Of a stretch of 64,000 nt of DNA, positions 1,608 to 51,063 are shown one piece after another. Numbering within the stretch: position 1 is the stretch's first letter; each line of letters begins with the position of its first letter. Location: assembly GCA_044892525.1 (NCBI GenBank), contig CM097886.1, positions 135,408,001 to 135,472,000 of the forward strand. Direction: 5' to 3'. Below the pieces are notes generated by a model, which was not told the DNA's origin, did no database searches, and saw only the letters and a program-made list of their open reading frames with translations. Source of the DNA: Schmidtea polychroa. Its lineage: Eukaryota. Made by a program: the position numbers and the translations under genes.

Positions 1608-4600
1608 GTAATTAATTCTGGTCCATCTGTTAATTATTAAAATAATCAAATCGAAGGTTTTGCAAATTTCTCAAATAAATGGAATAGATTTAGAGAATTT
1701 CCACGTCGAACAAGTTTTCTACAAAAGTAAAGATGGAGTAGATATACCAATGTTTATCATGCATCACAGAGTGAGTATGAATTAATTGCAGGTGGGGAGT
1801 TACTTTGTATTTTCGATAGGATTTTGTCCGAGATGGAAACAGTCCATGTCGACTCTATGGGTATGGGGGATTCGATATTAGTATCAAGCCGAGTTTTGGT
1901 GTATCGTTTCTATTGTTGATGCAACATTTTCGATTTGTTTGCGCATTCGCAAATATTAGAGGAGGTGGAGAATATGGCGAACCTTGGCATAATCAGGGTC
2001 GATTGCAATTTAAACAAAATTGTTTTGATGATTTTATTAAAGCGTCTGAATATCTAATTGCTGAGGGATATACAAAACCTGAAAAGTAATAAGTTAATTA
2101 ATAATTTTCAAACTGCACAATAATAATAATCAGGCACGTAGCCACGAGTGTGACAGTGGGAAGACTTTAGTCCCTTAAATTTGGAGCGTAAATTAAAAGT
2201 TTTTGTTTTGAATTATATTTCAACATCATAATTATAAATTAATTTTTGTCATTTTTTAACACAAAGTCGTCATCAGTACATTTGAGATTTAATATAACTC
2301 AAAATAATTAAATTGAAAACGCAATATGCTCGCATGTAAGTAATGAACATTTTAATTTTTTTACAAATTTTATTAAATAAAATCCTGATTCGAGAAGACA
2401 AATGGGTCATATCGTACGAGTCTCGGTTTTTGTATGGTCAAGATTAGTTATTTTCCTTCCTTCTATTCTAAACTCAATAGAGCAAGGGTCTCAAACTCAA
2501 ACTGACCGGCGGGCAGCATTAGACTAGTATCATGAGTCAGCGGACCGCAACATAATTTTTTTTAAAAAATAAATACTCGAGAATGTATCATAATTGCAAT
2601 TTATTAGAAATAGGAAAAAACATTATTTTGAACATAAAAATGTAACACAAAATTATTTAAATAAAGACAAACAAAGCGTTAAATATATTATTTTTATTAC
2701 TGGTTACTCAGTTGGCAACTTTTAATCACCACAAGACCATCAATATTAGGAACAATCTTTTGAAATGTGACCAGTCTTAGTGTTGTCACTTAACTTTGTT
2801 TTGTTGAAGATTTGTTGAATTTCATCAATGAAAAAAATTGTTCACAAAGATAGGTTCTAAACATTGCAATAATCTTTACTGCCTGAGAATGCAACTAGGA
2901 AATCTTTCTTGTTGGAGATATGAATAAAACTCAAGAATTCCTACATCAAAATACTTTTGTTTTAAAATAGAATCACATTGAAACTTCACTAATTCCATCT
3001 GAATTTCCTCTGACACGAATTCAATATCAACAGCAAATAATGTTGAAAAAAGTTGGAACTGTGGTTCAAGCAATTATCAATTTTTCATTTTAATCTGTTT
3101 CCAACTCAACATCCATTTTTGATTTCTTCTTCGGAGGCATTTTATATATTATTTCTATTTTTTGGAACTGTTGAAAAAAATTGAGTAAAATTATTGAATG
3201 CGGATAATTCGTTAAAATTTACAACAATGATCAAAGTTTTTTATTATAACTTTTGATGATACTTTGTTTGAGTCAAATATTAAACTAAAAATATTATAAT
3301 TTTATAAAGTTTTTCTTTAATAAGCATTAATTAATAATATTGAAATAAAAAAAATTAATTAAAAAACTTGATTTTTAACTGCGATATGCAGTTCTTGTTA
3401 TTTAATTAATTGAATTTCAAATTATACTCTTTTTGGTAATTTATTAAAAAATCTTCGCGGGTAGCATGCGGTTCGTGGGCCGCGTGTTTGAGGCGCCTGA
3501 CGTAAATAATCAAAATTTAAAATAACTTTAATTGTCAAATATAAATTTAAATAAAAAAATTAATTCGATTTGAATTTTAATATTGAATTCTGATAAATTG
3601 CTTGGAGATTGTTTGATTCAATACCGAAAAGTTTGTTTCAATATTGTTGTCTTCTACATTAATTTGCATTATTATTAATAAGATGGAAGTAAGACGACTT
3701 TTTCAAATTCTATTTTTATCAAATTAATAACATATTAAAACAAAGTTTTTAAATATGTTATTATTAATATAAATATTAATTTAATATTTATATTGATTTA
3801 ATTAGTTTGACTACATAGCCCTCCACCTAGATCAAGGAGTGATTTGTTATTGGTTGGAATGTACGCGGGTTTTAACTTGTCTACCGAAACACGAAGGTTT
3901 CTTGTCGGAAGTTGAATTTCGAAAGTTTTGAGGTCTGGGCTTCGACTAATAATTTGGAATGGTCCATCATACATAGGCCTCAAAGTTGTTCTTGTTTCCA
4001 CTTTAAGCCATACATGGGTGCATGTCCTCAAATCCTGTGGAAAGAATGTTTTCCAATTTTGTTTTCTAGTTCTTTTAATTGTAGTGTCTCCAGGTAGTTT
4101 TCCATTGATTCCAAAGACCGCTTGGCTTGGTGATTGATTATTGTCTTCTGAAACGACATTTCGAAGCCCCAGTAGTACCAATGGTAGATCATTGGCCCAA
4201 TTTCTATTTGCATCTTCTGAATGTGTTCTCAAAGCCGTCTTGAGAGTTCTGTGAAATCTTTCAACTTTGCCATTGCATTGGGGATGGTATGGTGTTGTGT
4301 GTCTGTGATCGATGTTGTGCTTTTCACAGAATTCTCTAAATGTGGATGAAATGAATTGCTTACCATTTTTTGTGATCATTATCTCGGGGGCTCCGTATCG
4401 AGCTATCCACTCGTTTTCTACTGTTTTGGTTACTAAACTGCTTGTGATATCAGAGATAGGAATTGCTTCTGGCCATGAGGTGTGTCTGTCAATTATAGTA
4501 AGCATGAATCTTTTATTATTTACTGATGGGAGTGGGTCGACAATGTCGATATGAATGACTTTGAATTTTTCTGCTTCTGGAAGTTCCTTCAAGCTTGACT

Positions 4601-7600
4601 TTGTGTGTCTCGTCACTTTATTTCTTTGACACTTTTCACACATTCTACACCACTCCCTAATTTGTGCTCGCATACAGGGCCACGCATATTTTGACGATAT
4701 CAATTTTATTGTCCCATTTGCTCCTGGGTGGCATAAATTATGAAGCCGCTGGAATTCCCTGAATTGGAATGGTTCTGGCAGTATTATTCGAGGGGAGCCA
4801 GTAGACATATCCACTAGGATTCCGTCATCATCTATACTTATTTTGAATGAGTGATTTGGCTTCAAGGTTTGGGCGAATGATTGTTGTCTTTGTTGATTAA
4901 TTATTTCATTTTTTGTCATCGGCACAGTCTCAACAATATTGAGAGTATTGTTGTCTGAATTAGGTTGTCTTGATAGGAAATCTGCGACAATGTTGTCTTT
5001 CCCTTTGATGTGAATTATCTTTGCATCAAATTCGTTTATGAACTGGATCCATCGCCATTGTCTATTGGATGGGTCTTTCATTGTATTTATATATACCAAT
5101 GGCTTGTGATCGGTTAGTAATTCGAATGTATTGTCGTCCAGGTGATGTTTGAAATTTTTGATGGCTAAATAGGCAGCTAATAGTTCTCAGTCAAATGTTG
5201 AATATCTTTGTTCAGTTTTGTTGAGCTTTCTAGAGAAAAAACTGATTGGTGTAAGTTTACCTTCTGCCGTTCTGTGATTAAGGCTTGCACCAATTCCAAT
5301 GTCCGATGCATCCGTGCATACGATGAATGTGCGTTGCGAATCTGGAGGGATCATTTCAGTGATTTCTTGCAGTTTTTTCTTTGCCGTTTCAAAGGCTTGC
5401 GAGTGTTGATCTTTCCAGATATATTTACGTTTGTCTTTTACTCCGTTTGATGTCAGTTCATGTAACGGAGCCATTATATCCGCCAAATTCGGTATTAGCT
5501 AGTGATAGAATGTTACCATTCCAATAAATCGTCTCAGTGCCTTAGCATCGTCTGGCCTTGAACAGGAGGTGATTGCTTGAATCTTATCGGTAAGATTCCT
5601 GAGTCTGAAATGTGAAATCCAGGAAAGTTAACCTGATTTTTAGCCAAGCAGCTTTTATCTTTATTTATTGATAAATGTGCATCTTTTAGAACTTTTTCGA
5701 TTGTTTGCAAATGTTTTTCATGATCTTCATTCGATTTAGAGAAAATGATTATGTCATCGATGTACGATCTGGAGAACATCCTGTATGGACGTAGAAGTTT
5801 GTCCATGAATCTTTGGAAAGTTTGTGATGCGTTCCTCAGTCCAAAAGGCATTTTGAGGTATTCGTATAGTCCAAAAGGTGTAATTATTGCTGTTTTTGGG
5901 ATGTCGTTTGCTTCAATTGGGATTTGGTGATATGCCTTTTCCAGATCGATCGTTGAAAATATTTTGCTTCCCCCGAGTTAATCTAAGATGTCGCTTATTC
6001 TGGGCAGCGGATATTTGTCGACTTTCGTGACTGAGTTCAGGAGTCTGTAGTCACCGCATGGGCGTATTGATCCATCTTTCTTCTTAACTATTACCAATGG
6101 TGACGCCCAGTCACTCTTACTTTCCCTTAGGATTCCATTTTGATCAAGGTATCGAATTCAGTTTGAACGGCTTCAAGCATGCGTCCACCCAGGCGTCTTA
6201 CTGACTGCGCAATTGGTGGCCCAGTTGTTTCGATTGCCATTGCATGCTCAGAGCTGACTGAATTGCTTCTTTTATTAACATTTGTGATAGCTGTATTTCC
6301 GATGAAGATTTTAGCATTTTTGCAATCCACTAGAAATCTATACTATAATAGAAAGTCTGCCCCAAGAATTGGGCGAGAAACATCTGCAACGATAAATTCC
6401 CATTTGAAATGCTGCTTTTGACCTTCAATCGTAAAATGTAGAACTTTTGAGCCATGTACTTTTATCCTACAGTTGTTAGCCGCTATGAGTCTGATCGGTG
6501 CAATTCTGGAATCGGGTTTAAATATTTTTGTTGGGATAACGCTGACATCTGCCCCAGAATCAATGAGAAAATCATATGATTTATTGTCAGAGAGGACTGG
6601 AACAGTGAAAATTGCATTAATCTTTGTCGACTGTTGAGTTGAGCATTGGATCCCTGTCATCGACATTAACGAGATCCTTGGCCTTTTCCCGACTTAACTG
6701 AATCAGACCAGCAACACGGTTTTTGGCATTTCCTGGCTTTTATTCCGAATCGTCTGTGAAAATAACATATTGTTTCTTCACTCGAATGACGTTCCTTTCG
6801 AGTAGAGCTTTCGTTTGCCCTTATGGCATTGATTTGATCTTGCAGGTTCTCTATTGCAAGCTGATGGAAGTTTCCGGCAATATTTTGACTTCCCACCGGT
6901 GAGATATGCTGATCATTGATGCTTACGTGCAAGTTGGCGATGTTGGCCAACTCATCAATGCCAACGTTGCTCGATATTAGAAGGTATTGAATGTGAACTG
7001 GCATGGAGTTAATGAACTGATGTCTGAGAATTTTGCTCGTTTCTGGGTCACCATTGGGTTCCATTATTTTATTGTTTCTTTTTAATTCTCTAAGGAGTTG
7101 GCTTGGTTTACGATCCCCAAGTTCCTGTTTCTGTAAAAGTTTGTTTGCTGCCTCCGTTGTTGATCTTTTTGAGTCATTAATAATTGCTTCTTTAAGTGCT
7201 GAGTATGGCTGGAGTATATGTGGATCCATTAAATCCGAGTACTCTTCGAGAACGCGAGATGGTAAGCTGGTTAACAAGTGAAAATATTTGGTTTTTCCGT
7301 TTCTGATTGAGGCCAGTTCCAATGCTGCGTCCACTTGTTGAAACCAAACTGCTACATTGTCGAAAAATGTTGGAATTTTCATTTGAATGTGACTACTTTC
7401 TTGAGCCACACTTCTGACACCAATGTTGTCTTCTACATTAATTTGCATTATTATTAATAAGATGGAAGTAAGACGACTTTTTCAAATTCTATTTTTATCA
7501 AATTAATAACATATTAAAACAAAGTTTTTAAATATGTTATTATTAATATAAATATTAATTTAATATTTATATTGATTTAATTGGTTTGACTACAAATATT

Positions 7601-10600: not shown

Positions 10601-12018
10601 AAATTTCGTAAGTAGAGCATCTTTTTCCTTGTAAATGCCCTAATCGGTTCCAGGACCGCAAAATTCAAACATAATTATTTTATAAATTATAAAAATACAA
10701 CAAAACCCCCTCTCCCCTATTTTGTTAACTTTATTTATACTAAATAGATTTTATATAATGCATATATATTGTTGAGGATACCTAAAGAGCAAATATTATA
10801 ATTAATAAGTAAATTGCCTTGGTGCGAGATCTTCATGACAAACGGGACCATCTATGAGAACTCAGAGAAGAAAACGGAAGTAAAAAGAAATGAAAAATGA
10901 GAAAGATAAATCAAATAAAAGAAAACAAGCAAGAAATTAAAACAAAGGTTATTAAGAAGTTAATTAAGAAGGCCAAACGAAGGAGGAATTTCAAATTCTA
11001 GAAAAACAAAAACATGGAGAAAAGCCGTATCTTCACAGCTTGTCAAAGATATCGAAATGACAGGAAAAGTCGACATAACACAAATAGGGAAAACAGGGCA
11101 TATCTCGACGTCTGTCAGAGATAAAATGGGAACAGAAGGGAAATGCGGGAGAAAGAGAAGTGGGAAGCATTAGATTATCTCTAGTGTCACAAATGAAACA
11201 AGCTATATAAAGAGGAGAAAGAAAGGCAGAGAAAGATACACAAAAATCAGACGAAATATCAGACGAAAATATATTGGATAACGAAACGGAAAACGAGGCA
11301 AGAGTCAACTGAAAAAAATAAAACTAACGGAGAAATTTTGGGAGAAATTTATAGAACTCACTGAGACGATTATTTATTGGAAAACGATTTGTTGAAGAAT
11401 AATTGTTAAAGAATAATTGTGAAGAACAACTGTTGGTGAAGATTTTTAGAAAAGAATTATTTGAGAAATAAACGAAAAGAAGTTATTGGAATATTTGAAT
11501 AAAGTGGTCGAAGGTTAAAGAAAACAACCAACTAAAAGTCCCAGTCGATAAACCAGTCAGTAGTTATTGATCTTTCAATCCGGTGTTGTACACGAGTGCA
11601 ATTCCTCACTTAGTTTTGCAATAAACATTGTATAGTCACCGAGCAGAGTGTTGAATTGATTGTCACTGTCAGTGAAATTTATTTGTGATTATCAATAAAG
11701 ATTTCTGTTGTCAAGTGTTATTAATGGGTCATTCAAAGACTCACTTGGAGTCAGAGTAACCATTTTAACTTTACAAATATCATCACCAATCTAATAACCC
11801 AACAATATTATCAAATAATTTAAGGATAATGAAAATGTGATAAAATAATTCATCGGCTGAAATAAGAATAAATAAAAATAAATAATAAAACCACTTTGAA
11901 TATTTTTTCTGAAAAATTAAGAAACGAGTGTTATTTTTTATTTGATATTAAGATTGAAGAGTACAAAGATGTAATTTGTTTTCTGCAACTTGTTCTTGAT
12001 CTCGAATGGTATGATTAA
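1524..12018 (+). CDS. PREP: prolyl oligopeptidase (S9A), 3' portion, six exons: 1524-1607, 1657-1770, 1820-2085, 8384-8581, 8623-8833, 11953-12018
   Basis: GT-AG introns with consistent phases give one frame containing [34 protein letters not shown] (catalytic Ser), DHDDRVVP (Asp), SGHGAGKPT (His) and C-terminal [21 protein letters not shown]. Upstream exons were not resolved. Confidence 0.93.
1657..1770 (+). CDS. PREP: PREP exon (...[21 protein letters not shown])
   Basis: gaag|GTT acceptor, AGA|gtgagt donor; preceded by a 49-nt intron. Confidence 0.9.
1820..2085 (+). CDS. PREP: PREP exon (LYGYGGF...NIRGGGEYG...EGYTKPEK)
   Basis: Strong S9A motifs; phase-2 donor AA|gtaat joins exon 8384. 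Confidence 0.93.
2483..3499 (-). mobile_element. internally deleted Charlie/GTF2IRD2-type hAT
   Basis: Termini CAAGGGTCTCAAAC / CAGGCGCCTCAAAC(rc); transposase C-terminal remnant ~2750-3073 (QMELV.FQCD..LK); TSD not conserved. Confidence 0.7.
3645..3815 (-). repeat. 3' LTR
   Basis: Direct repeat of 7424-7594; PPT AGGTGGAGGGCTA lies adjacent (3816-3828, minus strand). Confidence 0.95.
3798..5099 (-). CDS. integrase (HHCC zinc finger + DDE core), open frame
   Basis: HNLCHPG...CEKC; IHIDIV; [18 protein letters not shown]; GPF module. Confidence 0.9.
   Translation of the reverse strand: MVYINTMKDPSNRQWRWIQFINEFDAKIIHIKGKDNIVADFLSRQPNSDNNTLNIVETVPMTKNEIINQQRQQSFAQTLKPNHSFKISIDDDGILVDMSTGSPRIILPEPFQFREFQRLHNLCHPGANGTIKLISSKYAWPCMRAQIREWCRMCEKCQRNKVTRHTKSSLKELPEAEKFKVIHIDIVDPLPSVNNKRFMLTIIDRHTSWPEAIPISDITSSLVTKTVENEWIARYGAPEIMITKNGKQFISSTFREFCEKHNIDHRHTTPYHPQCNGKVERFHRTLKTALRTHSEDANRNWANDLPLVLLGLRNVVSEDNNQSPSQAVFGINGKLPGDTTIKRTRKQNWKTFFPQDLRTCTHVWLKVETRTTLRPMYDGPFQIISRSPDLKTFEIQLPTRNLRVSVDKLKPAYIPTNNKSLLDLGGGLCSQTN
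5100..6666 (-). pseudogene. pol: pol protease-RT-RNase H, disrupted
   Basis: LIDSGAD protease, WASPL, YIDD, TDASDIG, ELLA motifs; stops at ~6343, ~5500 and ~5187; frameshifts at ~6135 and ~5600. Confidence 0.9.
6666..7448 (-). CDS. gag: Gag with C-x2-H-x9-C-x3-C knuckle
   Basis: IPTFF...WFQQV; KPSQLLREL; [18 protein letters not shown]. Confidence 0.9.
   Translation of the reverse strand: MQINVEDNIGVRSVAQESSHIQMKIPTFFDNVAVWFQQVDAALELASIRNGKTKYFHLLTSLPSRVLEEYSDLMDPHILQPYSALKEAIINDSKRSTTEAANKLLQKQELGDRKPSQLLRELKRNNKIMEPNGDPETSKILRHQFINSMPVHIQYLLISSNVGIDELANIANLHVSINDQHISPVGSQNIAGNFHQLAIENLQDQINAIRANESSTRKERHSSEETICYFHRRFGIKARKCQKPCCWSDSVKSGKGQGSR
7409..7422 (-). promoter_or_regulatory. primer-binding site, tRNA-Leu
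   Basis: TGGTGTCAGAAGTG is complementary to the tRNA-Leu 3' end (...CACTTCTGACACCA). Confidence 0.85.
7424..7594 (-). repeat. 5' LTR
   Basis: Direct repeat of 3645-3815; PBS adjacent. Confidence 0.95.
8384..8581 (+). CDS. PREP: PREP exon with catalytic Ser (GGSNGG)
   Basis: cag|A acceptor, AA|gtact donor; [16 protein letters not shown]...[14 protein letters not shown]. Confidence 0.95.
8623..8833 (+). CDS. PREP: PREP exon with catalytic Asp and His
   Basis: Follows a 41-nt intron; YSPLHNI...ADHDDRVVP...[10 protein letters not shown]. Confidence 0.95.
9489..9550 (+). repeat. ~62-bp copy of the subterminal segment 2567-2627 of the Charlie-type hAT
   Basis: AAAATAAATACTCGAGAATGTATCATAATTGCAATTTATTAGAAATAGGAAAAA occurs at both sites. 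Confidence 0.8.
9570..10510 (-). pseudogene. decayed DNA-transposase N-terminus, tentatively Zator-like
   Basis: [21 protein letters not shown]...[13 protein letters not shown], with stops; resemblance recalled, not searched. Confidence 0.4.
10770..11804 (+). mobile_element. solo LTR, ~1035 bp, in PREP last intron
   Basis: TGTTGAG...CCCAACA termini; 4-bp TSD ATAT; AATAAA signals near the 3' end; no internal retroelement genes. Confidence 0.7.
11953..12018 (+). CDS. PREP: PREP terminal coding exon
   Basis: taag|ATT GAA GAG; [21 protein letters not shown] fits the PREP C-terminal helix (IEE..D...F....L...W). Confidence 0.8.
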   Translation: MEEYKDVICFLQLVLDLEWYD

Positions 12019-13625
12019 AAACTACTTTTATCTGAGATGCATTCGAGTGCCTTAAGCACAATAGAATTTTTCAATGTTTCTGTTTTGGTAACAAATAAAT
12101 TTCACGCGTAAGGATTTGTTTTGTTTTTGTTTTTGTAAATCGAATATTTTAACAATTTTGATATATTTTTATATTTTGTAAGTTTTAAAAAATAATATGC
12201 GTAAGTTTTCCTATGTAAGTTTTCCTTTAATTAATCCGAACGGATTACACGGATCTTAATTTTACATCTAGTAAATACTTTCATTCCTTTCATTATTCAT
12301 TAAGTGTTCTCTAAATTTTATCATTTTTGATAATAATCAATAATTTGAAAATATTTTCACAGTTGATCCTTATAAATATTTTTGGTTTTATAGTATAAAT
12401 TATAGTGTTCATATTTTTAACATGAAGTTGACTACATCACAAGAAGTCACTACAAAAATTTTAAAATGTACAGTTCTTCTGAACAAACTTTTGAAAATAT
12501 ACAATTAATCACATTTACTTAGAATAATTTTAATACATTTTTTAAATAAAAAAAATTAATGAAATTCATTAACTTTATACTTAACTCAACACATAAACAT
12601 CCCTAATAACAAAAATATCCTTTGAACTGTTTTACATGTAGTCTTACAGTTATTGATTAATGTTTAAATGGAATGTGTTTGAGTAAATTATTAGAAATAA
12701 TTGTTGAAAGCACTTTTATAGATTAATTTTGATGATTAATTGTTTTAGATCAATTTTGTCTATGAATAACAAACTGAAATAAATTAAAGATGTTGGATAA
12801 AGGGATAATCCCAAAAATAGTGATAATTAAAATTTGCACTTTTAAAACAGAAATTTCATATATAAGCAGACTGATTTCTTAGTTAAATCACCATAAAATA
12901 AAAACTTTAAAAAGAATTGCAAATTCAGAAATTGATATTGCAATATAATTTAGAGTATACAAAAATTACAAAAAAAATTACAAAAATTACATAGCAAGTA
13001 GAGATATACAAAGGGAACATAATAAGAAAGATTAAATAAAACAATTATATAATTTATTTAAAAGGTGATTTTTATTTTTTGTATATAACTGTTATTGATA
13101 AATAAAATCTTTGAACCAGTGTTTATGTTCTTATTTGTATAGGAATCATCAAGTTGAGATTTGAGAAACTTAACAGTTATTATTTTTAATACTAAAAAGT
13201 TGATAATTTTTCTCCTTATTCTTATTTGGGTATCTTTCATTGTGGTAACTTCGCATTTATACACCCCTTATGCTTTAACATTTTAGTCTTTAAAATATCT
13301 TTTGAAATAAATCATCTTTAAATCTTTTTATAATAGAGTCAAGGTTTCTTGAATACAACGAATGTGGTACATCGTAATTTGACGTGTTTAATAATTTATC
13401 ACTACTGATGTTGGACTTGAGCCTAAAAAATAAGAGTTTGTTTTAATAATTTTGGATATACATAGCACTATGATTATACATCAAATAATGCAGAGTAAAG
13501 CACACAGCACGTTGAGGATAAACACGTATCAGAAAAATTATAAAACGCCAATCAAGCATTCTTTTCACGATATATTTCGATAGTTTTCTTGTTATCATCA
13601 GGTAGAATATAATAACTATATTAAT

Positions 13626-16600
13626 TGTTGGGCCAAGCTTCGAGAGTATTGCAAAACAGGTTAAGGATGAATAAAGGGGATAAAACAAATTTCACGAAAA
13701 GCGCGAAAAATAAAAGAACAAATAAAATTAGATAAACATAACAGAAATAAAGGGAATAAAAATAACTAATGAAAATTATAAAAGACGAAAAATAAGATGA
13801 AAAAAGAAAAATAACGCACCACACATAATAGCAGAAGGGAATAAAATAATAAATTTAAAGAAAATAAACCAGAAATTAGGAAATAAAATAAATAAATCAA
13901 ATAAATACATAAACTAATTAAAACAAAAATTATACTATAACCAAAAAACAATAAAGTCACAGGAAAAACAGGAGGGAAATAATAAAAAAATAGAAAAATA
14001 AATAAAATTATAATGAAAAATAAGAAAAAGTCATTAAAATATACCTTATTACATTAAAAACATAAAAATAACAATAAATAATAATATTACACGCAAGTCG
14101 CGTCCTGATTGGACGGAAAATAATATAAAAGAAATGGAAAATATCTGTAGAGTACCATTTAACCAAACTGCTCTACAGGTAAAAAATATTTTTTGAATTG
14201 ACCATTTAACCAAACTGCTCTACAAATTAGGATCTACGAATCACACAGGAACCACTTAGCAAACTTCATCGAACAGATTTACAGGGACTATACTTAAGGA
14301 AAATTATTCATACAGCGATCGAGATTTCTGCAGAATATTAGTACATTTAACTTGGAAGAGAAAATCTAGACCTAAATTTTCAATACTCTCGAAGGAAACT
14401 TATCGTAAGTGGGATGAAAATTTTGATTTATGATTGATTTATATAAAAATGATTGAATAAAATACTTTATTTTTAATAAAAATTTATGATTACGAAGATA
14501 TTATCTCTCTCCATGCGGCTGGCGACGATGTCGTCTGGAAATCGAACATGATGCGGAGATGTGAATAAATTTTCTAGGAGATACTCGTAGACGAGCGATG
14601 AAAGTAAAGACATCGAATTGAGAATTTGAATGAATTAGATCTCACTGGGAATGGAAAATGAAAGGTACGATGAGTATTCCGACGTTTTACCATGTTCGAA
14701 ATTCAGGCGGCGTGGTCGCCGGTTAAGTAATTATGTTATATAATAGTAATATCCCAATAATATTGAGTTGTCTGATGAATTATACTATTTAATTTTGATG
14801 ATTATTTTTGAAGATGATAGAGATGTGATGAGATGGAATTGTCCTTCCTGACGGTCCAAGAATGGCGGCAGCGATGCATGCTGTTCTTGGGTGAGCCAGG
14901 AGGGGTGAGGATATCTGGTGAATGGCGGAATGTGGTTGTAGGAACCGATCTTTTCATCGAGTGCGATCCACTTTTGAAATCGTCGAAAATATTTCCAGTA
15001 TAACGAGTTACGGCCATTAAAGCTTAGGTGGAGGAACAATCCATAAAGAAAATGCATAAAATTGGTAAATTCATAAAATATAGACATTATATCAAATTTT
15101 CCTTTTTTCCGTCTCGTGATTGAAAATGAGCCATGATTTGAACTTGTCTTCGAATCGTGTCGAAATATCCAACCGACAGAGATCTGTATTCGCGCGATGT
15201 CATCGATAAAATTTCATGGAAAATTGGTGAAGCCTTAGCCTTATAAGGTGTGAATCACTAGGATATTGGCGATGAAACCCATCTATGATGCACTTTTGGA
15301 CGGAATAATCAACTCTTGTACTGCTGATAAGCTTTAATTTTCTGAAAATAAAGTAAACAACTCCCGAGGAATTATCAGAGTATGAAGGACACTGCTGTCA
15401 GAGTTATCAACTCAATGTTGAACGAAGCCCAGTCAGTTTTTGAGTAATCGAATGAGACGACCAACAAAAATCCACTACGCGAGATAAGGTGATAATTTCT
15501 GAATTGATTCATTAGTGGGCGTAACGACAGGAGTGCCCGAGCCCGCGACACGATAACAGACGAATCGGCAGTCCCAACTTATTGATAATCTTCTACATCT
15601 ATCATTTTCCATCTACGACAATTACCCACAGACACTATCGTAGGGAAATTCTGAGTGACTCCGTCTTGAACATGCATGCAATTTTACACTCAACGATGAG
15701 ATTTCTTCCAGTAGGGCGACATAAAATTCGAACAGAGATGTGTGTGATATCATCAGGATTGCGTAAGAATAGGGAATGTCACCGGAGATGTAGGGCTGTG
15801 TGTAAGAGTAGAATAATGGACCGCATCATCGTGGAGCAGTACGGTATTGACTCTGCTAGACTAGGATAGGCGAATAGTTACTCATACCAATCACAAATTT
15901 AGACACACCAACTCACCTAGTAGGGATGAATAATGATATGATAATTCACACAGATAGGCGTCGTCATGACGACGATTTCCCGTGCATATTTAAAAATCAT
16001 TTTATTTAAATTTGGATTACGCTTTTCCATAATATATTTTCGAGTATAAGCGTTGAAGTGAAATAATTTCGCCCAATTAGTATGCACGATACCGAAGTTA
16101 GAAGTGGGATTAATTAAACTGATGTGTTAAGGCCAGGTTTAAAAAGTTAAAGCTATAAAGCGACGAAATGAGATAAATATCGATAAAAATTCAGAATTTG
16201 AAATCTGAGATGTTAAAATTCATCGTTGTAATTGAATCATCTACAAATCCTCTTCGTTTCAGATAATTTGACTTAGCGCAACGCCGGGGAACTTAGGTTA
16301 CCTCCGATTTTTAACTGACCTAAACCCCGTAAAATCGCCCAAAAGGAGTAGCAGGATATGATTGATTGTAAAAGAGGGACGCTTTAATGTATATGATATA
16401 ATTTTGTTCTATATATATAAAACGAACGGCCACCATATTTTCAAGTACACAATAATGCAAATTAGCGGCTACATGATAAAGGTAAATTCCCCACCCGAAG
16501 ATAAATTTGACCCTTTCACCCACGAATGAGTTGATGTGAGGCGTTCCGTTTCTTTTCTCCGAAAAACCGCTGCATGAATGTATTAGTTCGGATGTTTGGG

Positions 16601-18031
16601 GTTGAATGGATCGCGGCACGATCACTGGTACGTACGCGTGAGATTAGCTTTGATGTTTTTGTCTTTATGCGAGATTGATGGAATAAACTTCATGTCGTAA
16701 GAGTGTCACTGAAAATTTCATAATGCCTGATGTGCGAGAATAAATGACCACTCCAACCAAGCCCGGAAATACCCTTCGACCTTGTTTTTCCTGTGCCGAT
16801 AAAAATGCAGATATCGCACAGCTGCACTTATACATCGGGGAATTAAAGAAGAGAATTGACCTATACGAAGGAACGCGGTTCTCCCCGCCACAAATGAAGG
16901 AAGAGAAGAGCAAAATTCTACGTTCGGAGCACTGCCGTGACAGTCTCCTAGAGGAGAGCAGATGCCAGAGGCTAACCATAAAAGCCCAATCAGAGGCACT
17001 GCACAAAGTATATTCTGAATCCGAGATAGCGAAGCGAGTTCGCGAATATCCAATTCAAGATGGGACTAACGTGTTCCCAGGACACCATCAATCCGCGGAA
17101 ACCTCATCAACAACCAGTTGCAAGGGGCACGGCCTACAACTACCACCAATTCCCGCCCCAGTCCTTTCTGGTTATCGGCCTATGGCTGGCGGTCCATCGG
17201 ACCCTATCTTGGCTCCAGTCCTCGTGTCGCCACTCACTCAGCCTCCAGCAGAAGCCACATTTCCACATCGAAAGCGTAAGAGACAGACGCGCTCAGAGAA
17301 AAATCAGAAGCGCAGAAACGCCATGGCCGCGCTCGAAGCATCGTTATCCGCAGCCAAGTCGACTATCAATGAAATTACAAGCACCCATTCCATCCCTACG
17401 AAAGAAGTATTTCGGGTAGTTCCGGCCGACAGCATCAAATTCCTCGAAGATCGACATTGACGAAATGGTCGCAGAAGGAGAAGTGTTTTCGTAACGAACC
17501 TTTCCCATTGGCCTCAATTTTCCGTGCAGTATGAAGGAACTCGAAGAAGTTGACGTTATCCTGTACATGACCTTTGATGTTTTGTTCTTATTTAATAAAT
17601 GGTGAATGTATCTTTATGTTTCGCTTTAATACCACTGTTCGAATTCTTTGATTTTGTCCATAGTATGTGTGGTTTGCTGTAGTTGATTTGAGTAAAAGAT
17701 GCTCCTGGAGACATAGTACGAGCTTAAACGTCGTCCCTTTGGACCAGGGTCGGACGGAATTATGGGTGAAGAAGCGGGTAAGACCTTCTAAGGCACCATG
17801 GAACCCGAACCGAGAAAGGGTTAGGAGTAGTCCTAAGGCCGGGGCTCACCTGCTAACCTTTTCCGACCCGTGTAAGCAGCACCAACGTGGAACATCACCA
17901 CGGGCTCATACGTGGGAATATGTATTTGATCATTTGGAGTATGTATGGGAAGTGGCTGAGCGGAAAATAGTACTTGGTATGTACAATGATCATGTGGGCA
18001 TATCTTTTCTCTTTCCCTACATACCCCAACA
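13626..18031 (+). mobile_element. giant (4406 bp) solo-LTR-like element, copy A
   Basis: TGTTGGG...CCCAACA termini; 4-bp TSD TAAT; colinear homology blocks with 43972-49539 (reverse complement). Confidence 0.75.
16744..17494 (+). CDS. unknown ~250-aa protein inside element A; small frameshifting deletion near the C-terminus
   Basis: Homolog of 44503-45264 with mostly synonymous differences. The frame stops at 17460, but the homologous tail IDIDEMVAEGEVFS* continues in another frame to 17494. Confidence 0.8.
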
Positions 18032-18439
18032 TAATTAAGGATTTCAAACAAATTTATTATTTATATAAAAAAATTTTCATTCTTTTTTTAAAATCATAGT
18101 TAAAATAATATATTATTTTTAAAATTTTAACATTTAGAATTTAATTTAATAATTTATTAATTATTTAATTTAAAAACAACAATAAAACATACCATTTATA
18201 TAAAATTATTTAAAAACATTTAAAATACAAGTATTAATTGCATTCTGCACATTAATTTTGAAAATAACTACAAACTCGCGGATTTTGGATGGTAAGAGAA
18301 TGCGTGGGTGGACATTACAAGTTGGCATAAATAGCAAACAAATTTTCATTTTTTAACTTGTTAAATTTAATGCTCTCGGTTTTTTCGGATCTACAGAATT
18401 TATGCTCGTTGCATGAATTATTTCTTTAATTTCGTGAAT

Positions 18440-42899: not shown

Positions 42900-43310
42900 A
42901 GTAGGTAGAAGTGAGCCCACAATGACTCATCGTTAAGGTCAACTTAAGGGCATAAAAAATTTTAAGGCCAATGTCATTTTCAGGACAATTTAAAGTCAAT
43001 TTAAACCATTTTAAGTTCAAAATATAAGGTCAAAGTCGATTTTAGGCCATTTTAATGTCAAAGTCGATTTTAGGCCATTTTAAGGTCAACTTTTGAGGCC
43101 AAAATCTAATTTTTCCAAATTTATGGTCAATTTTTAAGGTCATAAAAATTTTTGAGTTCAAACCCCTACCCATAATTTTAAGGTCAATTTTAAAAATTTT
43201 CTTAAGAACATTTAACGAATTACTTTATAGAAAATTGTCAAAGTCAAAACACGTTTTAATACTACGTTTGCAAATGTCTTTGTTATATGTCTTTGTTATA
43301 AATATTTCTA
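42900..43310 (+). repeat. Polinton left TIR with AAGGTCA-type subrepeats
   Basis: Inverted copy at ~60770-61120. Confidence 0.85.
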
Positions 43311-43892
43311 AGCGAGATCTTAAGTGAATGTGTGTAAAGGGCAATAAATAAGGGTAAAATCAAATTTTTTTTAGGAAAATACATGTAATTTGGTTTAAAT
43401 TTATGAAAACTATATATATCTTTTATTTTGGGCTGATAATCTATGTGTGTCTGTATATGAAAACATTGATAAGGAGCCAAAATATCAAATCAAATCTCTT
43501 ATGTTTTACATTTAACTATATTAATCAATAAGAATCATAACTAGTATTAGTATAAATTAAACAGTATATTTAAAATTAATGTACAATGTCAAAATCAAAT
43601 TTTGCAGAAAACATCTTAAAAGGTTTGGTTAATGAGAATATCGCACAAAGCCTCAGTTTCCTGGTTAAGCAAACTGAGAAAATCATTGAGGGAAACCATG
43701 TCGACTACCAGACCATGCTTGATATGTAATGCCTGGAGACGAAGAAATTTTATTTCAATAGGATCTTCGACTGTCTATTCGACGACCAAATGAAGTGAAC
43801 CAGAATAATCATAGGTTTTACCTATATGAAGATTATTATAGAAAGGAGTCTATAAGATGCTGACCATTATAATCTGTGGTCTCAAGAAGTCA

Positions 43893-43971
<79 letters not shown>
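43893..43971 (+). repeat. (ATT)n microsatellite
   Basis: About 26 units. Confidence 0.95.
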
Positions 43972-43973
<2 letters not shown>

Positions 43974-44502
43974 TTGGCGTATGAGGGGAGAAAAGGAAAA
44001 TTTAAAAATTTTATCACCAGATATATGATTACGTGTATTTGACTCAGACCTTTCCCCGATCATACTCCTATTGACTTTATGAATATTCCCTCATGTGAGC
44101 CCGTGGCTCACGTTGGTGATGCCCACACGGGTTGGAGTTGGTTAACAGTTGAGCCCCTGCCTTAGGACTACTGTTAATCCCCTCGTGGTTCGGGTTCCAC
44201 GGTGCCTTAGAAGGACTTACCCACATTCATACATAGCTCGGTCCGATTCTGATCGAAAGGAACGACCTTCAACCTAATTACCTTCATTCCGCAGCATTAT
44301 TTCGTTTACCCCGATTGCACAATCAAACATATGGAAACTTTACAAAACCAAAACAAACACAAAAAAATATATTGACACCGAAACGAAAATACATTACAAC
44401 TAATAGATCGACAGCATTTGAACCATTAGAATATGCAATATTGTCAAAGTTTGCAAGCCAATTTACAACTCGAAGAAGAATTCGAGATCAATTGTAAGCC
44501 GT

Positions 44503-45264
44503 TTAGGCAAAGCCATCCCCGTCGGCAATCATCTCGTCGATGTCGACAGGTAATCGACAGTCCGATATAAATTTGATGCCGTTGGCCGGAACAATGCGGC
44601 AGATTTCTTTCGAGGGGATTGAGTGTGTGGACGATATTTCTTTGATCTTCGAGTGTGCCACTGATAAGGACGCTTCGAGTGCTGTTATTGCATCTCTGCG
44701 CTTTTTATTCTTCTCTGCCCGGGTCGGTCGTTTTCGTTTCCGAGACGGCGGGTGATTTTCGGCCACTGAGGTCACAACGGGGGCCACGAGGACTGGGGCC
44801 AGAATGGGATCCGAAGGACCGCCTTTCATTGGTAGATAGCCCGACAGTACTGGGGCTGGGATGGGCGGCAGATGTGAGCCATGCCCCTGACAATTTGTGG
44901 TGGAAGATGTAGAGGACTGGTGGTGGAGAGGGAAAACGTTCGTTCCATCCACGACAGGAAATTCGCGCACCCGTTTGGCTAGTTCTGCCTCCGTATAGAC
45001 CTTGTGGAGGGCTTCGGACTGGGCCTTTATTGTGAGTCTTTGACAGCGGCTCTCCTCCAGGAGGCTGTCTCTGCAGTGCTCTAATCTGAGGATCTTACTT
45101 CGCTCTTCTTTCATCTGTGGCGGGGAGAACCACGTTCCTTCGTAGAGGTCTATTCGTTTCTTGAGAGCCCCGATATACAAGTGAAGTTGGGCGATATCCG
45201 CGTTATTGTCAGCACAAGAAAAACACGGGCGAAGTTCTTTAGCATTGTTGGACGGTGTAGTCAT
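44503..45264 (-). CDS. unknown 253-aa protein inside element B (CxxC, coiled coil, Pro-rich segment, RKRKR basic patch)
   Basis: Intact ORF; high amino-acid identity to 16744-17460 with abundant synonymous changes. Confidence 0.85.
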   Translation of the reverse strand: MTTPSNNAKELRPCFSCADNNADIAQLHLYIGALKKRIDLYEGTWFSPPQMKEERSKILRLEHCRDSLLEESRCQRLTIKAQSEALHKVYTEAELAKRVREFPVVDGTNVFPLHHQSSTSSTTNCQGHGSHLPPIPAPVLSGYLPMKGGPSDPILAPVLVAPVVTSVAENHPPSRKRKRPTRAEKNKKRRDAITALEASLSVAHSKIKEISSTHSIPSKEICRIVPANGIKFISDCRLPVDIDEMIADGDGFA

Positions 45265-46525
45265 CTAGAAATTTAATCATTTTTCAGGCGCAGTCGCAAT
45301 ATTCATTAGCGTAGCATTTACGATTTAGAACATAGGCTTAAAAATTTCATCAATCGTACCACTCTTCCCCCATATCTCGGCGCTTCACATTCATTCGGTT
45401 ACGAAAAACTTTCAAATTTATTTACCTAATTATGATAATTGAGAAAAGAAAACGGGGAAATCCTCGAATTTAATTTACTCGACATAAAAATTTTCAGGTT
45501 GGATAGTCCCCACCTATTACCCTTTTAGTTAATTGTTATTGGTAATTCTACCTTTTTTATAATCCGAAAATAATTAAAAATCCAATTCTTGGTATCGTGG
45601 TTTGTCGATTGGTGCATGCCTAATGTAATAGAGTCGGAATTCGGTACCATTTATATTTATTTGTGCGATATCAATTCCAATCAACGCTAAAAAATTCAAA
45701 ATATGCTATACAAAAATGCGTGATAAATTAAAATATAATTATTTACAAAGCGCGCCGTAGTCGTCGTCATGGAGACGTTTACCTGTAGTCATGCATTATG
45801 AATGAATTTTAAGCGTACTAATACTCCTTGTCGCACCTGTGGTTGTGTATTGGTTATTACAGCGAATGATTATTTATGCTTTTTGGAGAGGTTATTAAAT
45901 GTCAAGTTGAGAAATCCATTCCTTTACCCCTGCCTACCGTCTCACTGTTTTTGGAAAAATTCATGTTATCACGCAATCATTACATCACCAAAAAATTTTC
46001 TGCCCTAATCGTAGATTTATCTGTATGCTGCCTTGCGCAGAATTGACGGGTGTGAACGTGTGTATGTGCCTTCCTAAGTCAGAGTAATATGGATTGCATA
46101 ACAGCTTCCTTAAACAAGCAGCAGCCGTAGACAGATCGGGAGAGTCAGATTAAGCATCATGAGTAGGCGACAAATCAGTAGATTACTGAGTAAGCTTGAT
46201 TTTATTATCCAACTCCTTTTTACGATGTTGATTTAGGGCAACAACTATCGACTTATTCGATCGACAATTCCTACCAGAAAACCGATACACTATCTCCCCT
46301 TCTAAGACATTATCAGCTATCCACGTCAGCTAACTCCAAGCTGGCTAAGATTAATCGACGAATTTTGTTATCGTTGGCAACTATCTCCTTCGAGCTTATA
46401 GTGAGTATTTTTATAATTTATTACGAGATGTTTACTCCTCTGTCAGAGAGAAATTGCTTATCACTGATATCGGCAATTCAAGGATAACAGTTCAATTTAA
46501 GAGTACACCGACGATGGATGTAGTC

Positions 46526-47462
46526 CAGTGTTTCCCAACCTTTTTTAGCTCATGTCCCCCCTAGCTGAATTTTTTTTTCTTTTGTCCCCCCTATGCAAAA
46601 CATTTTACAGTTTTTAAAAAATTTCCAACTATTTTTATTGATATACGTAATTAATAGATAAAGATTAATTTTTTTATTCAATGAGACAATTGACTCTGAT
46701 GGTTACTGCAGAGTGATTTAATATTAGGTTCGAAGTTGGTAAGTTTAAGCCTTAGATCTCCTCTTTCAATGATATCTAAACGATTTCTCTTCTTGATAAG
46801 TAAATCATTAATTACACTAAATCCACATTCAGATAAATCGTCGGTTTAAAAGCAGAAATCACTAAGTCAAAAAACTCACTAAGTCAACTTTGATTGTATT
46901 ATAATAGCACGATTGACTTAGTGCAATAAATGTCCGCCTAAAAACCTCAACAATATCAATTTACGACTTATAAGATTTTGCCCATATAAAGTTGGCATTA
47001 TAATGATTTAATTTAGTACAAAAAATCAAAATCTTGGAAAATGTACTTAGTGAATTTAGCTTGTAAAACAACGAAATAGGTAGTGGGAAATGGTAATAAT
47101 AGTTTTCTTGCATAAGATGTTGACATTGGATATTATTTATTCATCTCATCGCTAAGCCATGCCATTATCCCTTTCAAACCAAACAGATTTTTTATTGATT
47201 CATCGTTTTGAATCTCAGCGATTTCTTCTATATATTCGAAATTTTCGAATTCTGCCAAATCTATAAGCATCGTCTGTGTTATCCAATTTGGGAAGATAAT
47301 TTCTTTTAAGTCTGAAAACCTCTCTTCTAAGTCTTCTATAAGTAATTTTAAATGGTCAAGAATCAAACCTAAAATTAACATATATTCCCTAAAATTGAAA
47401 TTGCCCCCTGGAAATACAAATTGCCCCCAAGTGGGGCGTGGGCCCCACGTTGGGAAACACTG
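46526..47462 (-). mobile_element. non-autonomous Buster-type hAT (937 bp)
   Basis: 14-bp TIR CAGTGTTTCCCAAC; perfect TSD ATGTAGTC; transposase remnant 47133-47381 (EERFSDL...FPNWITQ). Confidence 0.93.
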
Positions 47463-47888
47463 ATGTAGTCGCTAGCGTCCTGGCGACACAAATCAGATAG
47501 AACCTCGGAAATGCAGTACGTTACAGAAAATGGTTGGAATTTCTCGCAAACTATGGTCGACAAGTTCTTTTTCTAACTACTCTGACCGACAAGCCGAGTA
47601 TGGAAAAGGGCTCTTCTACCTATGTGGATTCTTACCATCAATATGGACATCAATGTCAATCTCAATCTGAGTTATCCTCCTTTGGAATTTAATCATCTTT
47701 ACGACTATTGGAGATTTCGGTGTGACTGAATGAAACGATGGGATGCTCTATAAACGATCGCACTCGATGAAGGAAATTTCACTTCCCAACTGGATCTCGA
47801 CCTACTGAGTTTCTTCACCCCTCATGACACACCCAAGAACGGCATTCATTTCTGCCACCGCTCTTGCACCGTCATGAGGGAGCAATCC

Positions 47889-48523
47889 ACTCATTTCCAT
47901 TCAATTAAATCAACAATTTGTGCAAAATTTATATAATGATCAAAAATGAATGATGGGTAAATGAATAAATAAAATTTACCCGGCGACCATATCATTTTGG
48001 CTCCAAGTATGATGTCTCCCTTTCCATACAATCGCACGTTTGCTCGTAACATTGGTGAACATCTCATTCTGTTTCCACGTTTGCGTTTATGTAACACATA
48101 TTTGTAGGTCACTAAATTCTTAACAGCATATCTAGACATGCCCAAAATGGTGCCAATTGCACCATAACTGTTACCTTCCTCTTTCATCTTTATAGCAACT
48201 TCCTTTAAATCTGGAGATCTCATAATCAATTCTAAAATTAATATAAACATTAAAATCATATAAAGTAGTATAAAAAAATAGGTTAAAATTATTAATACTT
48301 AAAAATCTTTAAAGTGTGCTAAAAATTGTGTCGTATTTTAATTTTTAATAAACCTAAGAGTTCAAATATTATTTAAACTAAAAATAATATATGTCTAAGT
48401 AGTGATAATTATTAAAAGTATTACTATATTAATTACAATCATACAAAATTTATTTCATTTATTACATTATTCATGATTTTGTAACGAAATTTCTTACTGT
48501 GCTAAAAATAGTGTCGGGCAGTA
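47889..48523 (-). mobile_element. Tc1-like transposon 5' fragment
   Basis: HTH ORF (RSPDLKEVAIKMKEEGNSYGAIGTILGMSRYAV); one TIR ending GTGTCGGGCAGTA|TA with an internal repeat at ~48316; other end missing. Confidence 0.65.
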
Positions 48524-49789
48524 TATTATCATTTTCTCGAAGCATCTAATTTTTACGACATCTTCTGGATGCATATTCTGAAAATTTCTCGCGGCCGTGT
48601 TTTCCGCCGTGGCATACCTCTGGCTCGTCCACATCATACCTGAAGCTCCCAGATGGTACAGTCGCCTGCACCATGAAGAAAGGCTGTTTTTCATTTGAAT
48701 AAATTTATTGTATGAAATTGTTTTTAATCATATTTACAAAAAAAAATAAACCAGATTAAACCAACAACCATAAATAAATCAACTGCTGAGACATACCTCA
48801 AGTTTCGAAAACTTGATTAAATCGATTGAATTTGGAATTTGTCCTGAATAGATTTGTCGTTTGATTACTATATATTCCTTCCTAGATTTGGTTTCGTAGT
48901 CTCTGGAATAGTTCGCTGTTGGATAATTGAGTTAAATGTTCCGTAATCTGTAGGGTCTTGGTTAAGTTGTTTGGTAGGCTGTAGAGTATTTTTAAAAAGT
49001 GGTCAAATAATCAACAAAATTTTACCTGTAGAGTATTTTTTAAAAGTGGTACTCTACAGATATTTTCCGTTCCTTATATATTATTTTTTATTATAATATA
49101 TTAGATTTTAATGACTTAACTTATTTCTTATTATTATTTTATTTATTTTCTTATTTTTATTATTTTTCTCCTCTTTTTTCTGCGGATTTATTGCTATTTT
49201 ATGGTAATATAATTTTTTGTTTTAATTAGACTTAAGGATAGTTTTATTTTTATTTATTTCTTTAATTTCTCGTTTATTTTTCTCACTTTTTTGCTTATTC
49301 TATTTCTACTTTATCCGCTGTGTGCCTTAAATCATTTCCCTTTTGTCTTATTTCCAAATCTTAGGGGTTTTATTTATTTTGGTTACTTATTCCTATTTCT
49401 TTTGTTGGTATTTTATTGTTTCTCCCTATTTACTACTGAGATTTCGCGATAATTTATTTTTTATCTTATTTCGTTTATTTTTCCGAGGTTCGTTTCCCTA
49501 TTTGATCCAGTTTTCTCCACTTCAAAATTTAGCCCAACAATTATTATTATTATTATTTATAATATTAATTTGTAAGTAGTCAAACATAAGTTTTCGCCAT
49601 GGATCGATTCCAATGGGGGATGGGACACACTAGTCGAACTTGCCCAGAACGCACAAGAAATAGAGCAAGCCAAAGCGAAAGTCAAATGTTATATGCGATT
49701 AGCTATGGAAGTTTTATTATATGCAATGTGTAAATATTTAAATAAAAGTTAATGTTATTTATAAATATTATACTTAAAATATACACTCA

Positions 49790-50103
49790 AACTAAAATTT
49801 ATTAACACATTCAAATTCATCATCTCCACATTTCATAACATTTTCAACGACATGACCTATACAATCGTTATATACACGCGGTTCGGAATACTTAATATTT
49901 TCAGTTATATAATCTGTAAATTCATCCTTAGGTTCATCAATTTCTTGTGTGTTTTCTTCATTAATTTGTTCTGTTATTTCCTCATCAGTTCAATCAAATC
50001 TTGAATCTTCACTCTCGGCTACTCAGTCTATATTTAATGCATTTGAAACAGATAATCTATCCTCCATTTTTACACCAGATATTTCTGCTAATTTTGCCAA
50101 CAT
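49790..50103 (-). pseudogene. acidic unknown ORF (Polinton cargo), with stops
   Basis: MLAKLAEISGVKMEDR...EEITEQINEENTQEIDEPKDEF...; two in-frame stops. Confidence 0.4.
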
Positions 50104-50320
50104 AAAGTTGATTAAATATTTTAAACAATAAATAATTCGATCATTAACTAGCCATATTATCCTTTTTCTAACTTCATTATTAACACTTTAAAACTATATT
50201 GGAAGTTTGTTTATAGAATGTCTTTGTTAAAGTTTTTTATTTTGCATTGATAAAGCAATTTCCTGGTTAAATAAATGAAAAACATATATTTATTAAAAAC
50301 AATAAATATAGCAACATTTA

Positions 50321-50740
50321 TTAAAATAGCTGTGGAAGTCTAGCAGACATAATTTTCCAAATTGGAGAATACGCATCATTATTATCAACTTTATGTCCTT
50401 GGATTGCAATTGTTATATACCAATTTTCGTTTTCTTTGAAGCTGATTTCATCAAAGGAATCATAAAATCTTGCATATCGGTTGTTGAACCTTGTGTGCTG
50501 ATTACATGATAGATTCGTATCAAACCGTTTGAAAACCTCATCAATAGATTTAACATCTATCATTGAAAGTGTGCCGGATAAGAATTGAAATTGAGTAGGA
50601 ATTAACTTGATCGGTGACACCAATTTCATATTGATTTCTTCTTTTCAAAAATATATTTTGTCGTTGTGGAACATTTGAACAGGTTGTACAAGTTCTGGAA
50701 TAACTTTTGGTTTTTCAGTACTTAAAATTTTCTTTGCCAT
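50321..50740 (-). pseudogene. unknown Polinton ORF (~139 aa, one internal stop)
   Basis: ATG at 50740 is in frame with the 102-aa track ORF, separated by one TGA. Confidence 0.5.
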
Positions 50741-50920
50741 CGTGAATTATGAATAAAATGAAATGGTACAGGGTTTTTATACCTTCAACTTGTGCTTATC
50801 AACCAATCAGATTATTTAAATTGCATTCAAAATGCATAGATGTTGCATTGTGACATGTTCTATTATTAATGTGTCATATTAGTAATGTTTTTATTATTAT
50901 TACTATTCTCAAACTATTTC

Positions 50921-50988
<68 letters not shown>

Positions 50989-51030
50989 TTATCATCATTT
51001 CTATTATTATTTTTATTACTATTACTATTT
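50921..51030 (+). repeat. (ATT)n microsatellite, imperfect
   Basis: Visible. Confidence 0.9.
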
Positions 51031-51063
51031 ACTACAAAAACAAAAATAATTAACTATAAAGAT

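Follow-up and report, generated by a model that had tools for sequence, protein, structure and literature searches.

The stretch of DNA considered here, hereafter ‘the window’, consists of 64,000 nucleotides of the genome of the planarian Schmidtea polychroa (NCBI GenBank assembly GCA_044892525.1, contig CM097886.1, positions 135,408,001 to 135,472,000 of the forward strand, with positions below counted from the first letter of that stretch). Within the window are two copies of a multi-kilobase repeat, and within each copy is a protein-coding gene. Copy A is a solo-LTR-like element (LTR, long terminal repeat) of 4406 bp, found at 13626..18031 on the + strand, where strand is the sense of its open reading frame (ORF). 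Copy B is found at 43972..49539 on the − strand and is 5568 bp long, or approximately 4080 bp if two nested inserts are subtracted. The two copies probably are ‘solo’ LTRs of a family of very large Ty3/Gypsy retroelements, ones which carry a gene that has been under selection.

Copy A begins with TGTTGGG (13626..13632, +) and ends with CCCAACA (18025..18031, +), short inverted repeats that fit, respectively, TGTTRNR and YNYAACA. These are the two halves of the consensus for LTR ends, TGTTRNR..YNYAACA, which is about 7 bp long (extracts of PMC3601003). The perfect inverted repeat of copy A is exactly 7 bp, without extension, and over 40 terminal positions there are only 16 matches. Immediately outside of these ends are the two halves of a target-site duplication, TAAT, at 13622..13625 and at 18032..18035, the right one also being evident from the ‘empty-site’ joints of assembled contigs. 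That is, in one contig of run X1 position 13620 is followed, after two intervening letters, by 18033, for a net loss of 4410, i.e., the element plus one copy of the 4-bp duplication, while a contig joint of run X5, from another study, gives a net loss of 4409 across copy A. As both flanks of copy A are high-depth repeats, judging by contig depth, these joints probably derive from paralogues of the target repeat that are without the insertion. The boundaries of copy A can be taken as real, due to the alignment with copy B in combination with these element-skipping joints. A previous reading of the window, made without database searches (the sequence-only reading), had proposed these same ends and this same TAAT duplication, and both are present, with contig joints skipping the element exactly.

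Copy B likewise has TAAT on both sides, in this case within a (TAA)n microsatellite (43893-43973 and 49540-49555). Its 5' end consists of the same seven bases as that of copy A, and its other end, which is degenerate, aligns to the last bases of copy A. With TAAT at both insertion sites, the element may prefer TAA repeats as targets, though with n=2. Copy B is longer than copy A because of its nested inserts. The first (46526..47462) is 937 bp long and is classed as hAT-type by its 14-bp TIRs (terminal inverted repeats) along with an 8-bp duplication, with no Pfam match found in it. The second, at 47977..48523 (−), is an approximately 547-bp, Tc1/mariner-like insert, with loose TIRs and a weak HTH_SB match (E 0.035).

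Homology between the copies is patchy. Fourteen of 22 segments of copy A, each of 300 bp, match copy B at z > 5 (15 shuffles each), and all 14 do so in colinear order and on the minus strand, which bears out the opposite-orientation second copy that the sequence-only reading had described at 43972-49539. Much of 15000-16700 of copy A, by comparison with copy B, is at noise level. The copies are inverted relative to each other, and even in their best parts they are only about 70% alike. They consequently represent two old subfamilies rather than the LTR pair of a single insertion.

The gene of copy A, P0001, is an ATG-initiated ORF of 238 codons (16744..17460, +), and its homologue in copy B, P0002, is an ORF of 253 codons which is open from ATG to stop (44503..45264, −). 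The same residue is found at 180 of 234 aligned codons, i.e., 77% amino-acid identity. Differences between the two fall 46, 26, and 142 times at the first, second, and third codon positions, respectively, with the proportion of nonsynonymous differences (pN) being 0.15, that of synonymous differences (pS) being 0.78, which is saturated, and the bootstrap range of pN/pS being 0.15-0.25. This codon-position skew together with the low pN/pS implies purifying selection on the protein. The ORF, that is, belongs to the LTR-like unit and has been kept by purifying selection, across subfamilies, during the life of the family. Other long frames of copy A display no protein-level conservation in copy B, and a scan of the window using profile A4 returned only the two already known ORFs. 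No Pfam family was found for P0001 or P0002, nor was there any Pfam match upon scanning five element ORFs from copy A and P0002. Copy A thus is not non-coding but instead carries a conserved, ATG-initiated ORF, one which the sequence-only reading missed.

Relatives of this protein exist elsewhere. A full HMMER scan of 1.84 billion representatives gave 11 matches, with 10 of them real by alignment; the remaining one, P0013, was dropped as a relative, its match consisting of only 29 residues within a repeat protein. Profile searches added six more, for a total of 16 relatives at 26-42% identity, all of which are unnamed, single-member records. When P0002 alone was used in a word-indexed search, none of 1449 candidates proved to be a match. 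Fourteen of the 16 relatives are fused to an unrelated host domain, and to a different one each time (a transporter, a furin-type protease, actin, MCM, a phosphatase, etc.). That the host domain differs with each relative suggests gene models which have run into a dispersed repeat. In a tree of 12 rows, P0001 and P0002 pair apart from at least two groups of relatives, to which they have 31-42% core identity. No relatives were found in viral contigs (by protein and by DNA pattern), in metagenome contigs, or, by DNA pattern, in prokaryote genomes.

Members of the family share a plan, in which a first helix leads via a GTW..P kink into a long helix, followed by a Pro-rich linker and then by an Arg/Lys-rich helix, often along with an acidic stretch; in most members, the basic cluster comes first and the acidic stretch second. 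Helices are predicted at residues 18-41, 49-89, 92-101, and 182-197, with a predicted local distance difference test (pLDDT) score of about 90. In two of the relatives, P0004 and P0005, a PPxY motif is found just after the basic helix, and that motif is absent from P0001 and P0002. A homodimer model of residues 12-118 scored 0.62 versus 0.13 for the best of three controls, with contacts that are in register, with runs agreeing in at least 98% of those contacts, and with pLDDT of at least 82. The mark used for calling dimers was calibrated using microbial proteins, where 21 of the 30 that had been solved as pairs, and none of 23 single chains, attained it, and also using eukaryotic proteins, where it was reached by 17 of 29 pairs (though by just one of the seven without an older relative) and by none of 30 single chains. 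The P0001/P0002-type protein thereby is predicted to be a parallel coiled-coil dimer, with a coiled coil of about 75 residues.

Comparisons of fold return little beyond that helical character. Foldseek gave no matches at E 0.001 against either the PDB or viral structures. The best VIA-align Z was 9.7, which is within the range expected for helical pairs, the fold matches being generically helical, and a search of the ESM Atlas with P0004 gave a best feature score of 0.84 and no family. A gap-free profile match of 54 residues to Med9 has an E of 0.033, with no Pfam Med9 match and with fold matches that again are generic helical pairs, so that it serves as a lead only. Pfam REV, lastly, matched one of 12 members at E 7e-4, over the Arg-rich stretch only, at 19.1 bits versus a curated cut-off of 22, and is likewise a lead.

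The argument that these repeats are solo LTRs is based on their ends, on the 4-bp duplication, on the empty flanks, and on conserved, RNA-type hairpins. Copy A fits both of the LTR end consensuses and copy B fits that of the 5' end only. A gypsy element found elsewhere in the window, which bears both a primer-binding site (PBS) and a polypurine tract (PPT), also ends in ..ACAACA, and this counts for an LTR identity as well. LTRs of more than 3 kb are infrequent (extracts of PMC3485330). The sequence-only reading had suggested solo LTRs of a very large gypsy element, and that suggestion in part stands, i.e., as supported by ends, duplication, empty flanks, and hairpins, while its account of the element left out the conserved gene.

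There are, at the same time, observations that pull in the other direction. The terminal pattern of copy A is, by itself, at chance level: TG..CA pairs with 7-bp inverted repeats and 4-bp duplications are seen 23 times in the window versus a mean of 16.5, and a maximum of 23, over 30 local shuffles. As the sequence-only reading had stated of copy A, neither copy adjoins gag-pol, and neither, in either orientation, has beside it a PBS or a G-rich PPT, both of which are seen with the gypsy element serving as control. That same full gypsy element possesses a 5-bp rather than a 4-bp duplication. None of the 16 relatives of the protein is joined to a gag, reverse transcriptase (RT), integrase, or transposase domain. 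The ORF of copy A, furthermore, is frameshifted near its 3' end, which removes an acidic tail whose homologue continues, in another frame, to approximately 17490.

Given that a retro-element interior is seen with no copy, these repeats might instead be viewed as a DNA element, that is, one lacking a transposase, having 7-bp ends and a cargo gene, and employing a borrowed, Gypsy-type integrase, as would be Ginger2- or Polinton-like. This is improbable. Ginger ends also are TGTNR, and Ginger2 produces 4-bp duplications at AT-rich sites (extracts of PMC2836005), so both the ends and the duplication length found here are as seen with Ginger1 and Ginger2, and the AT-rich target is as seen with Ginger2; Polinton-like genes, in addition, are present in the window. 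The TIRs of Ginger elements, however, are about 40-270 bp (extracts of PMC2836005) versus 7 bp here. More specifically, Ginger1 is characterized by 40-270-bp TIRs and a CCGG/CCGT duplication, where what is found instead is 7 bp and TAAT, while the TIRs of Ginger2/Tdd are about 45 bp or more, a length over which the present termini, with their 16 matches in 40, do not pair. As to the AT-rich RTATAY site of Ginger2/Tdd, the duplication here has 4 bp and is rich in A and T, but its sequence is TAAT in each of the two copies (n=2). Ginger1 and Ginger2 also encode an aspartate-aspartate-glutamate (DDE) transposase, and no DDE or integrase ORF is present in the element, whose longest frame is that of the 238-codon, all-helical protein. 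Conserved hairpins with G-U-compatible changes suit, weakly, an RNA stage. The Ginger-like alternative that the sequence-only reading had offered thus has against it both the 7-bp TIR and the lack of any transposase found.

The abundance of different portions of the element provides another perspective. In run X1, the ORF's first half has a summed contig depth of approximately 24,000 and the segment 17775-17965 one of 53,000, versus 90-450 in the middle of the element and roughly 15-20 on low-copy flank contigs; summed contig depth, it should be stressed, is not copy number. Run X7, which may be RNA, has the same depth profile as DNA. The depth profile of run X1 points to a large family, within which many diverged subfamilies share the gene along with the 3' block.

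The great excess of depth over the ORF and the 3' block relative to the middle, which implies many diverged subfamilies sharing only these parts, also could be produced by an LTR-derived unit that no longer has its own coding interior and yet spreads. Such a unit would exist as pairs, like large retrotransposon derivatives (LARDs) or terminal-repeat retrotransposons in miniature (TRIMs), or as tandem LTRs, mobilized in trans, with copies A and B being recombination products and the ORF being the unit's only gene. The lack of gag or pol in any of the relatives is in keeping with this idea, which nevertheless is quite improbable. Among the contig joints listed, there is neither a short interior nor a tandem junction, and it is in any case ordinary for solo LTRs to outnumber full elements strongly, e.g., 429 solo versus 162 full for rice Retrosat2 (extracts of PMC3485330). 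Derivation from full Ty3/Gypsy elements is the interpretation retained in what follows.

The non-coding portion of the element is not without structure. It begins with an A-rich tract (13626..14125, +), which is 58% A and, in copy B, 55% A. This is followed, at 14142..14224 (+), by a 13-bp stem-loop (14142-14181), the 3' arm of which lies within a 24-nt direct repeat (14154-14177 and 14201-14224). The stem-loop is kept in copy B, with 12 of 13 pairs invariant, making of it a candidate for DNA binding sites or instead for an RNA hairpin. A longer hairpin (14842..14905, +), with 23 pairs that are kept in both copies, coincides with an island of raised depth; one double and five single changes preserve its pairing, with the single changes remaining paired, as G-U, on the ORF strand. 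Further along, at 15918..16096 (+), is a conserved non-coding island that has homology with copy B and that includes a 16-bp palindrome (15959-15974), the right half of which is kept in copy B. This island may be viewed as a candidate enhancer.

Approximately 330 bp before the ORF is a TATA-like run (16410..16421, +). In copy B, the ORF is preceded at a distance of about 300 bp by a TATA-like match of its own, though the alignment there is not a confident one. Following the ORF, at 17594..17690 (+), is an AATAAA and then a GT/T-rich tract, a candidate polyadenylation site for which the T-rich tract is present also in copy B; many chance AATAAA are found in the A-rich part of copy A. The most conserved non-coding block (17721..17960, +) comes last. 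It has the highest depth of the element and has predicted stem-loops, with CTAAGGC present in two loops (17788 and 17833). One layout that would fit is promoter, gene, poly(A) site, and then a structured ‘U5’ (the unique 5' region of a retroviral LTR), with both orientation and start site being presumptive. Searching Rfam gave one chance-level match per copy, and no tRNA was found in the 64-kb window. An 8-mer of the 3' loops, CTAAGGCA, is found as well at two places (53574 and 55785) on the minus strand of a Burro-type fragment. It has six matches in the window versus 0.83 expected, three of which are in the two copies and the other three of which probably are due to chance.

What might the protein do? 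A possibility, held tentatively and as slightly more doubtful than not, is that it is an element-encoded regulator of the element's own expression, a suggestion made from anatomy. In outline, a full element would integrate at an AT-rich, TAAT site, generating a 4-bp duplication, with LTR-LTR recombination then presumably removing the interior and leaving behind the solo LTR. The protein would dimerize via its approximately 75-residue coiled coil, its Arg/Lys-rich helix may bind nucleic acid or mediate nuclear entry, and its acidic tail resembles an activation domain. Most likely it would act on its own LTR, doing so via the repeated DNA motifs or via the structured 3' block. The outcome would be a switching on, or an extending, of the transcription of a long genomic RNA.

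Retroviruses supply parallels. Retroviral genes that are found in or that overlap the LTR include sag of mouse mammary tumour virus (MMTV) and nef of human immunodeficiency virus (HIV), and retroviral regulators include Tat, Rev, and the Tas protein of foamy viruses. As with this retroviral set taken together, what is seen here is a small accessory gene in a terminal repeat, an Arg-rich motif, and structured RNA nearby. Unlike with the retroviral regulators, there is no homology shown beyond the Arg-rich REV match, and the coiled-coil core is unrelated.

Various results detract from this account of the element as a whole. Pfam, profile, and fold searches yielded no functional homologue, so a regulatory function would be based on anatomy only. 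The covariation of the 14842-14905 hairpin, as assessed from two sequences only, is equalled in 238 of 500 shuffles. Copy B lacks an AATAAA at the position corresponding to that of copy A. Folding of the 3' block is weak (z about -1.9 and -1.8), and a consensus fold on the other strand is comparable.

From a different perspective, the element could be the same but with its protein serving instead as a nucleic-acid chaperone or packaging factor (cf. ORF1p of long interspersed nuclear elements, or nucleocapsid), or as an anti-silencing factor that counters control by PIWI-interacting RNAs (piRNAs). A dimeric coiled coil plus a basic helix would suit chaperone, packaging, and anti-silencing roles equally well, and in planarians the main targets of PIWI include LTR elements (extracts of PMC8532177). 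On the other hand, CCHC knuckles are already present in the window's Burro-type Gag, and the acidic tail along with a position beside promoter-like motifs would seem to favour a regulator. Chaperone, packaging, or anti-silencing functions consequently are rated here as somewhat unlikely.

The regulator interpretation can be taken further, to a proposal that is bolder and that is itself unlikely, namely that the giant retroelements of the planarian type are, in a regulatory sense, complex retroviruses. Each LTR would be a self-contained unit consisting of promoter, gene, and poly(A) site, the dimeric, nucleic-acid-binding protein of which, via repeated DNA motifs or structured RNA of the same LTR, would switch expression from a short message to a 30-kb genomic RNA. 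This would be a circuit that is like that of Tat or Rev but of independent origin, within the Gypsy lineage.

To which giant elements might these LTRs belong? Burro, also GYPSM1, is a giant, Gypsy-like element of planarians with an interior of up to 25 kb, a total length of more than 30 kb, and thousands of copies, its order being gag-CCHC, fusion-glycoprotein-like, and protease, with accessory ORFs and extra domains (extracts of PMC6431247). Those lengths, of interior and in total, imply multi-kilobase LTRs. Copies A and B, at 4.4 kb and about 4.1 kb, are like Burro in this regard, though with Burro LTR size itself being deduced and the likeness being one of size. The Burro account, as extracted, names accessory ORFs and no gene in the LTR (PMC6431247), versus the gene sitting inside of the LTR here. 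The case for a link to Burro, which the sequence-only reading had raised as needing a check, is circumstantial, consisting of element size plus the occurrence, at another place in the window, of a fragment of Burro type, and the chances of a Burro parentage for copies A and B are judged to be even. Many Burro solo LTRs are said to have been reported by Grohme in 2018.

That Burro-type fragment is a broken run at 52932-57351 (+), which comprises a gag with CCHC knuckles, an unassigned stretch, a short fusion-glycoprotein-like match, and a protease. Its Pfam matches are Retrotrans_gag at E 3e-4, CCHC, Monjiviricetes_fusion at E 5.5e-5, and protease at E 3e-13. Against using this fragment to connect copies A and B with Burro are that its env-like Monjiviricetes_fusion match is under the Pfam cut-off (21.8 versus 27 bits) and that the fragment begins abruptly after Polinton-like DNA, lacking an LTR and unlinked to either copy. 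A CCCAACA at 52824 was considered as an LTR end and rejected, there being no PBS after it and its location being, by eye, within a short basic frame.

Other mobile elements also occupy the window. The gypsy element employed above as a control is found at 3645-7594 (−) and is full length, though decayed, with 171-bp LTRs that are 99% alike, a tRNA-type PBS, a PPT, and a 5-bp duplication; its gag-like, RT, RNase H, and integrase frames are broken by stops. A second gypsy element, at approximately 38788-62700 (−), has an LTR pair which is 97-99% alike, with nested inserts totalling about 18 kb, copy B included, interrupting its interior. A unit of 1035 bp at 10770-11804 begins with TGTTGAG, ends with CCCAACA, and is flanked on each side by ATAT; it has an A-rich body and AATAAA near 11620, and it probably is an ordinary solo LTR of another family. 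Long inverted repeats (78-88%) at 43025-61020, lastly, surround a Pox_A32-like ATPase (52134-52553) and a frame like that of the TATA-binding protein, or TBP (51502-51972). This region is a Polinton-like remnant, and it is inside of this remnant that copy B, in its (TAA)n tract, is located.

Multi-kilobase solo LTRs of giant Gypsy elements are, as such, known and ordinary. Plant Ogre elements, for example, have LTRs of 1.9-6.5 kb (extracts of PMC6431247), and those of Retrosat2 are longer than 3.2 kb (extracts of PMC3485330). Like the present family, Ogre and Retrosat2 combine multi-kilobase Gypsy LTRs with many solo copies and with extra ORFs to which no function is assigned, but in these plant elements the extra ORFs are in the interior rather than in the LTR. 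No description of a gene in planarian giant LTRs was found in the literature searched, with Grohme 2018 and Repbase, which may annotate the ORF, being outside of that search; extracts of PMC11410931, PMC13238120, PMC10954484, and bioRxiv 10.64898/2025.12.11.693146 contain nothing on LTR structure. In Schmidtea mediterranea, the RNA of the element GLT2 is PIWI-repressed and is neuron-enriched (extracts of PMC8532177). The reverse strand of the GLT2 probe has an open frame in which the spacing of helix, TW..PE, and helix is, by eye and unscored, like that of the LTR protein family, and in which 11 of 32 positions are, without gaps, identical to P0003. This likeness fades after the motif and is a lead only.

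What is unusual, then, for an animal Gypsy element is a selected gene in the terminal repeat, one that is found across many diverged subfamilies and that has relatives in other gene sets. Dispersal of this LTR gene accounts for a number of host gene models in public databases that are chimeric. The gene also provides a concrete handle on the control of a 30-kb retroelement RNA. Each solo LTR may, in addition, amount to a small gene, a point of relevance to the tissue-specific expression of transposons that follows PIWI loss in planarians. Were the comparison with complex retroviruses to be true, then a regulatory gene under PIWI control would be scattered through the genome in the form of thousands of solo LTRs.

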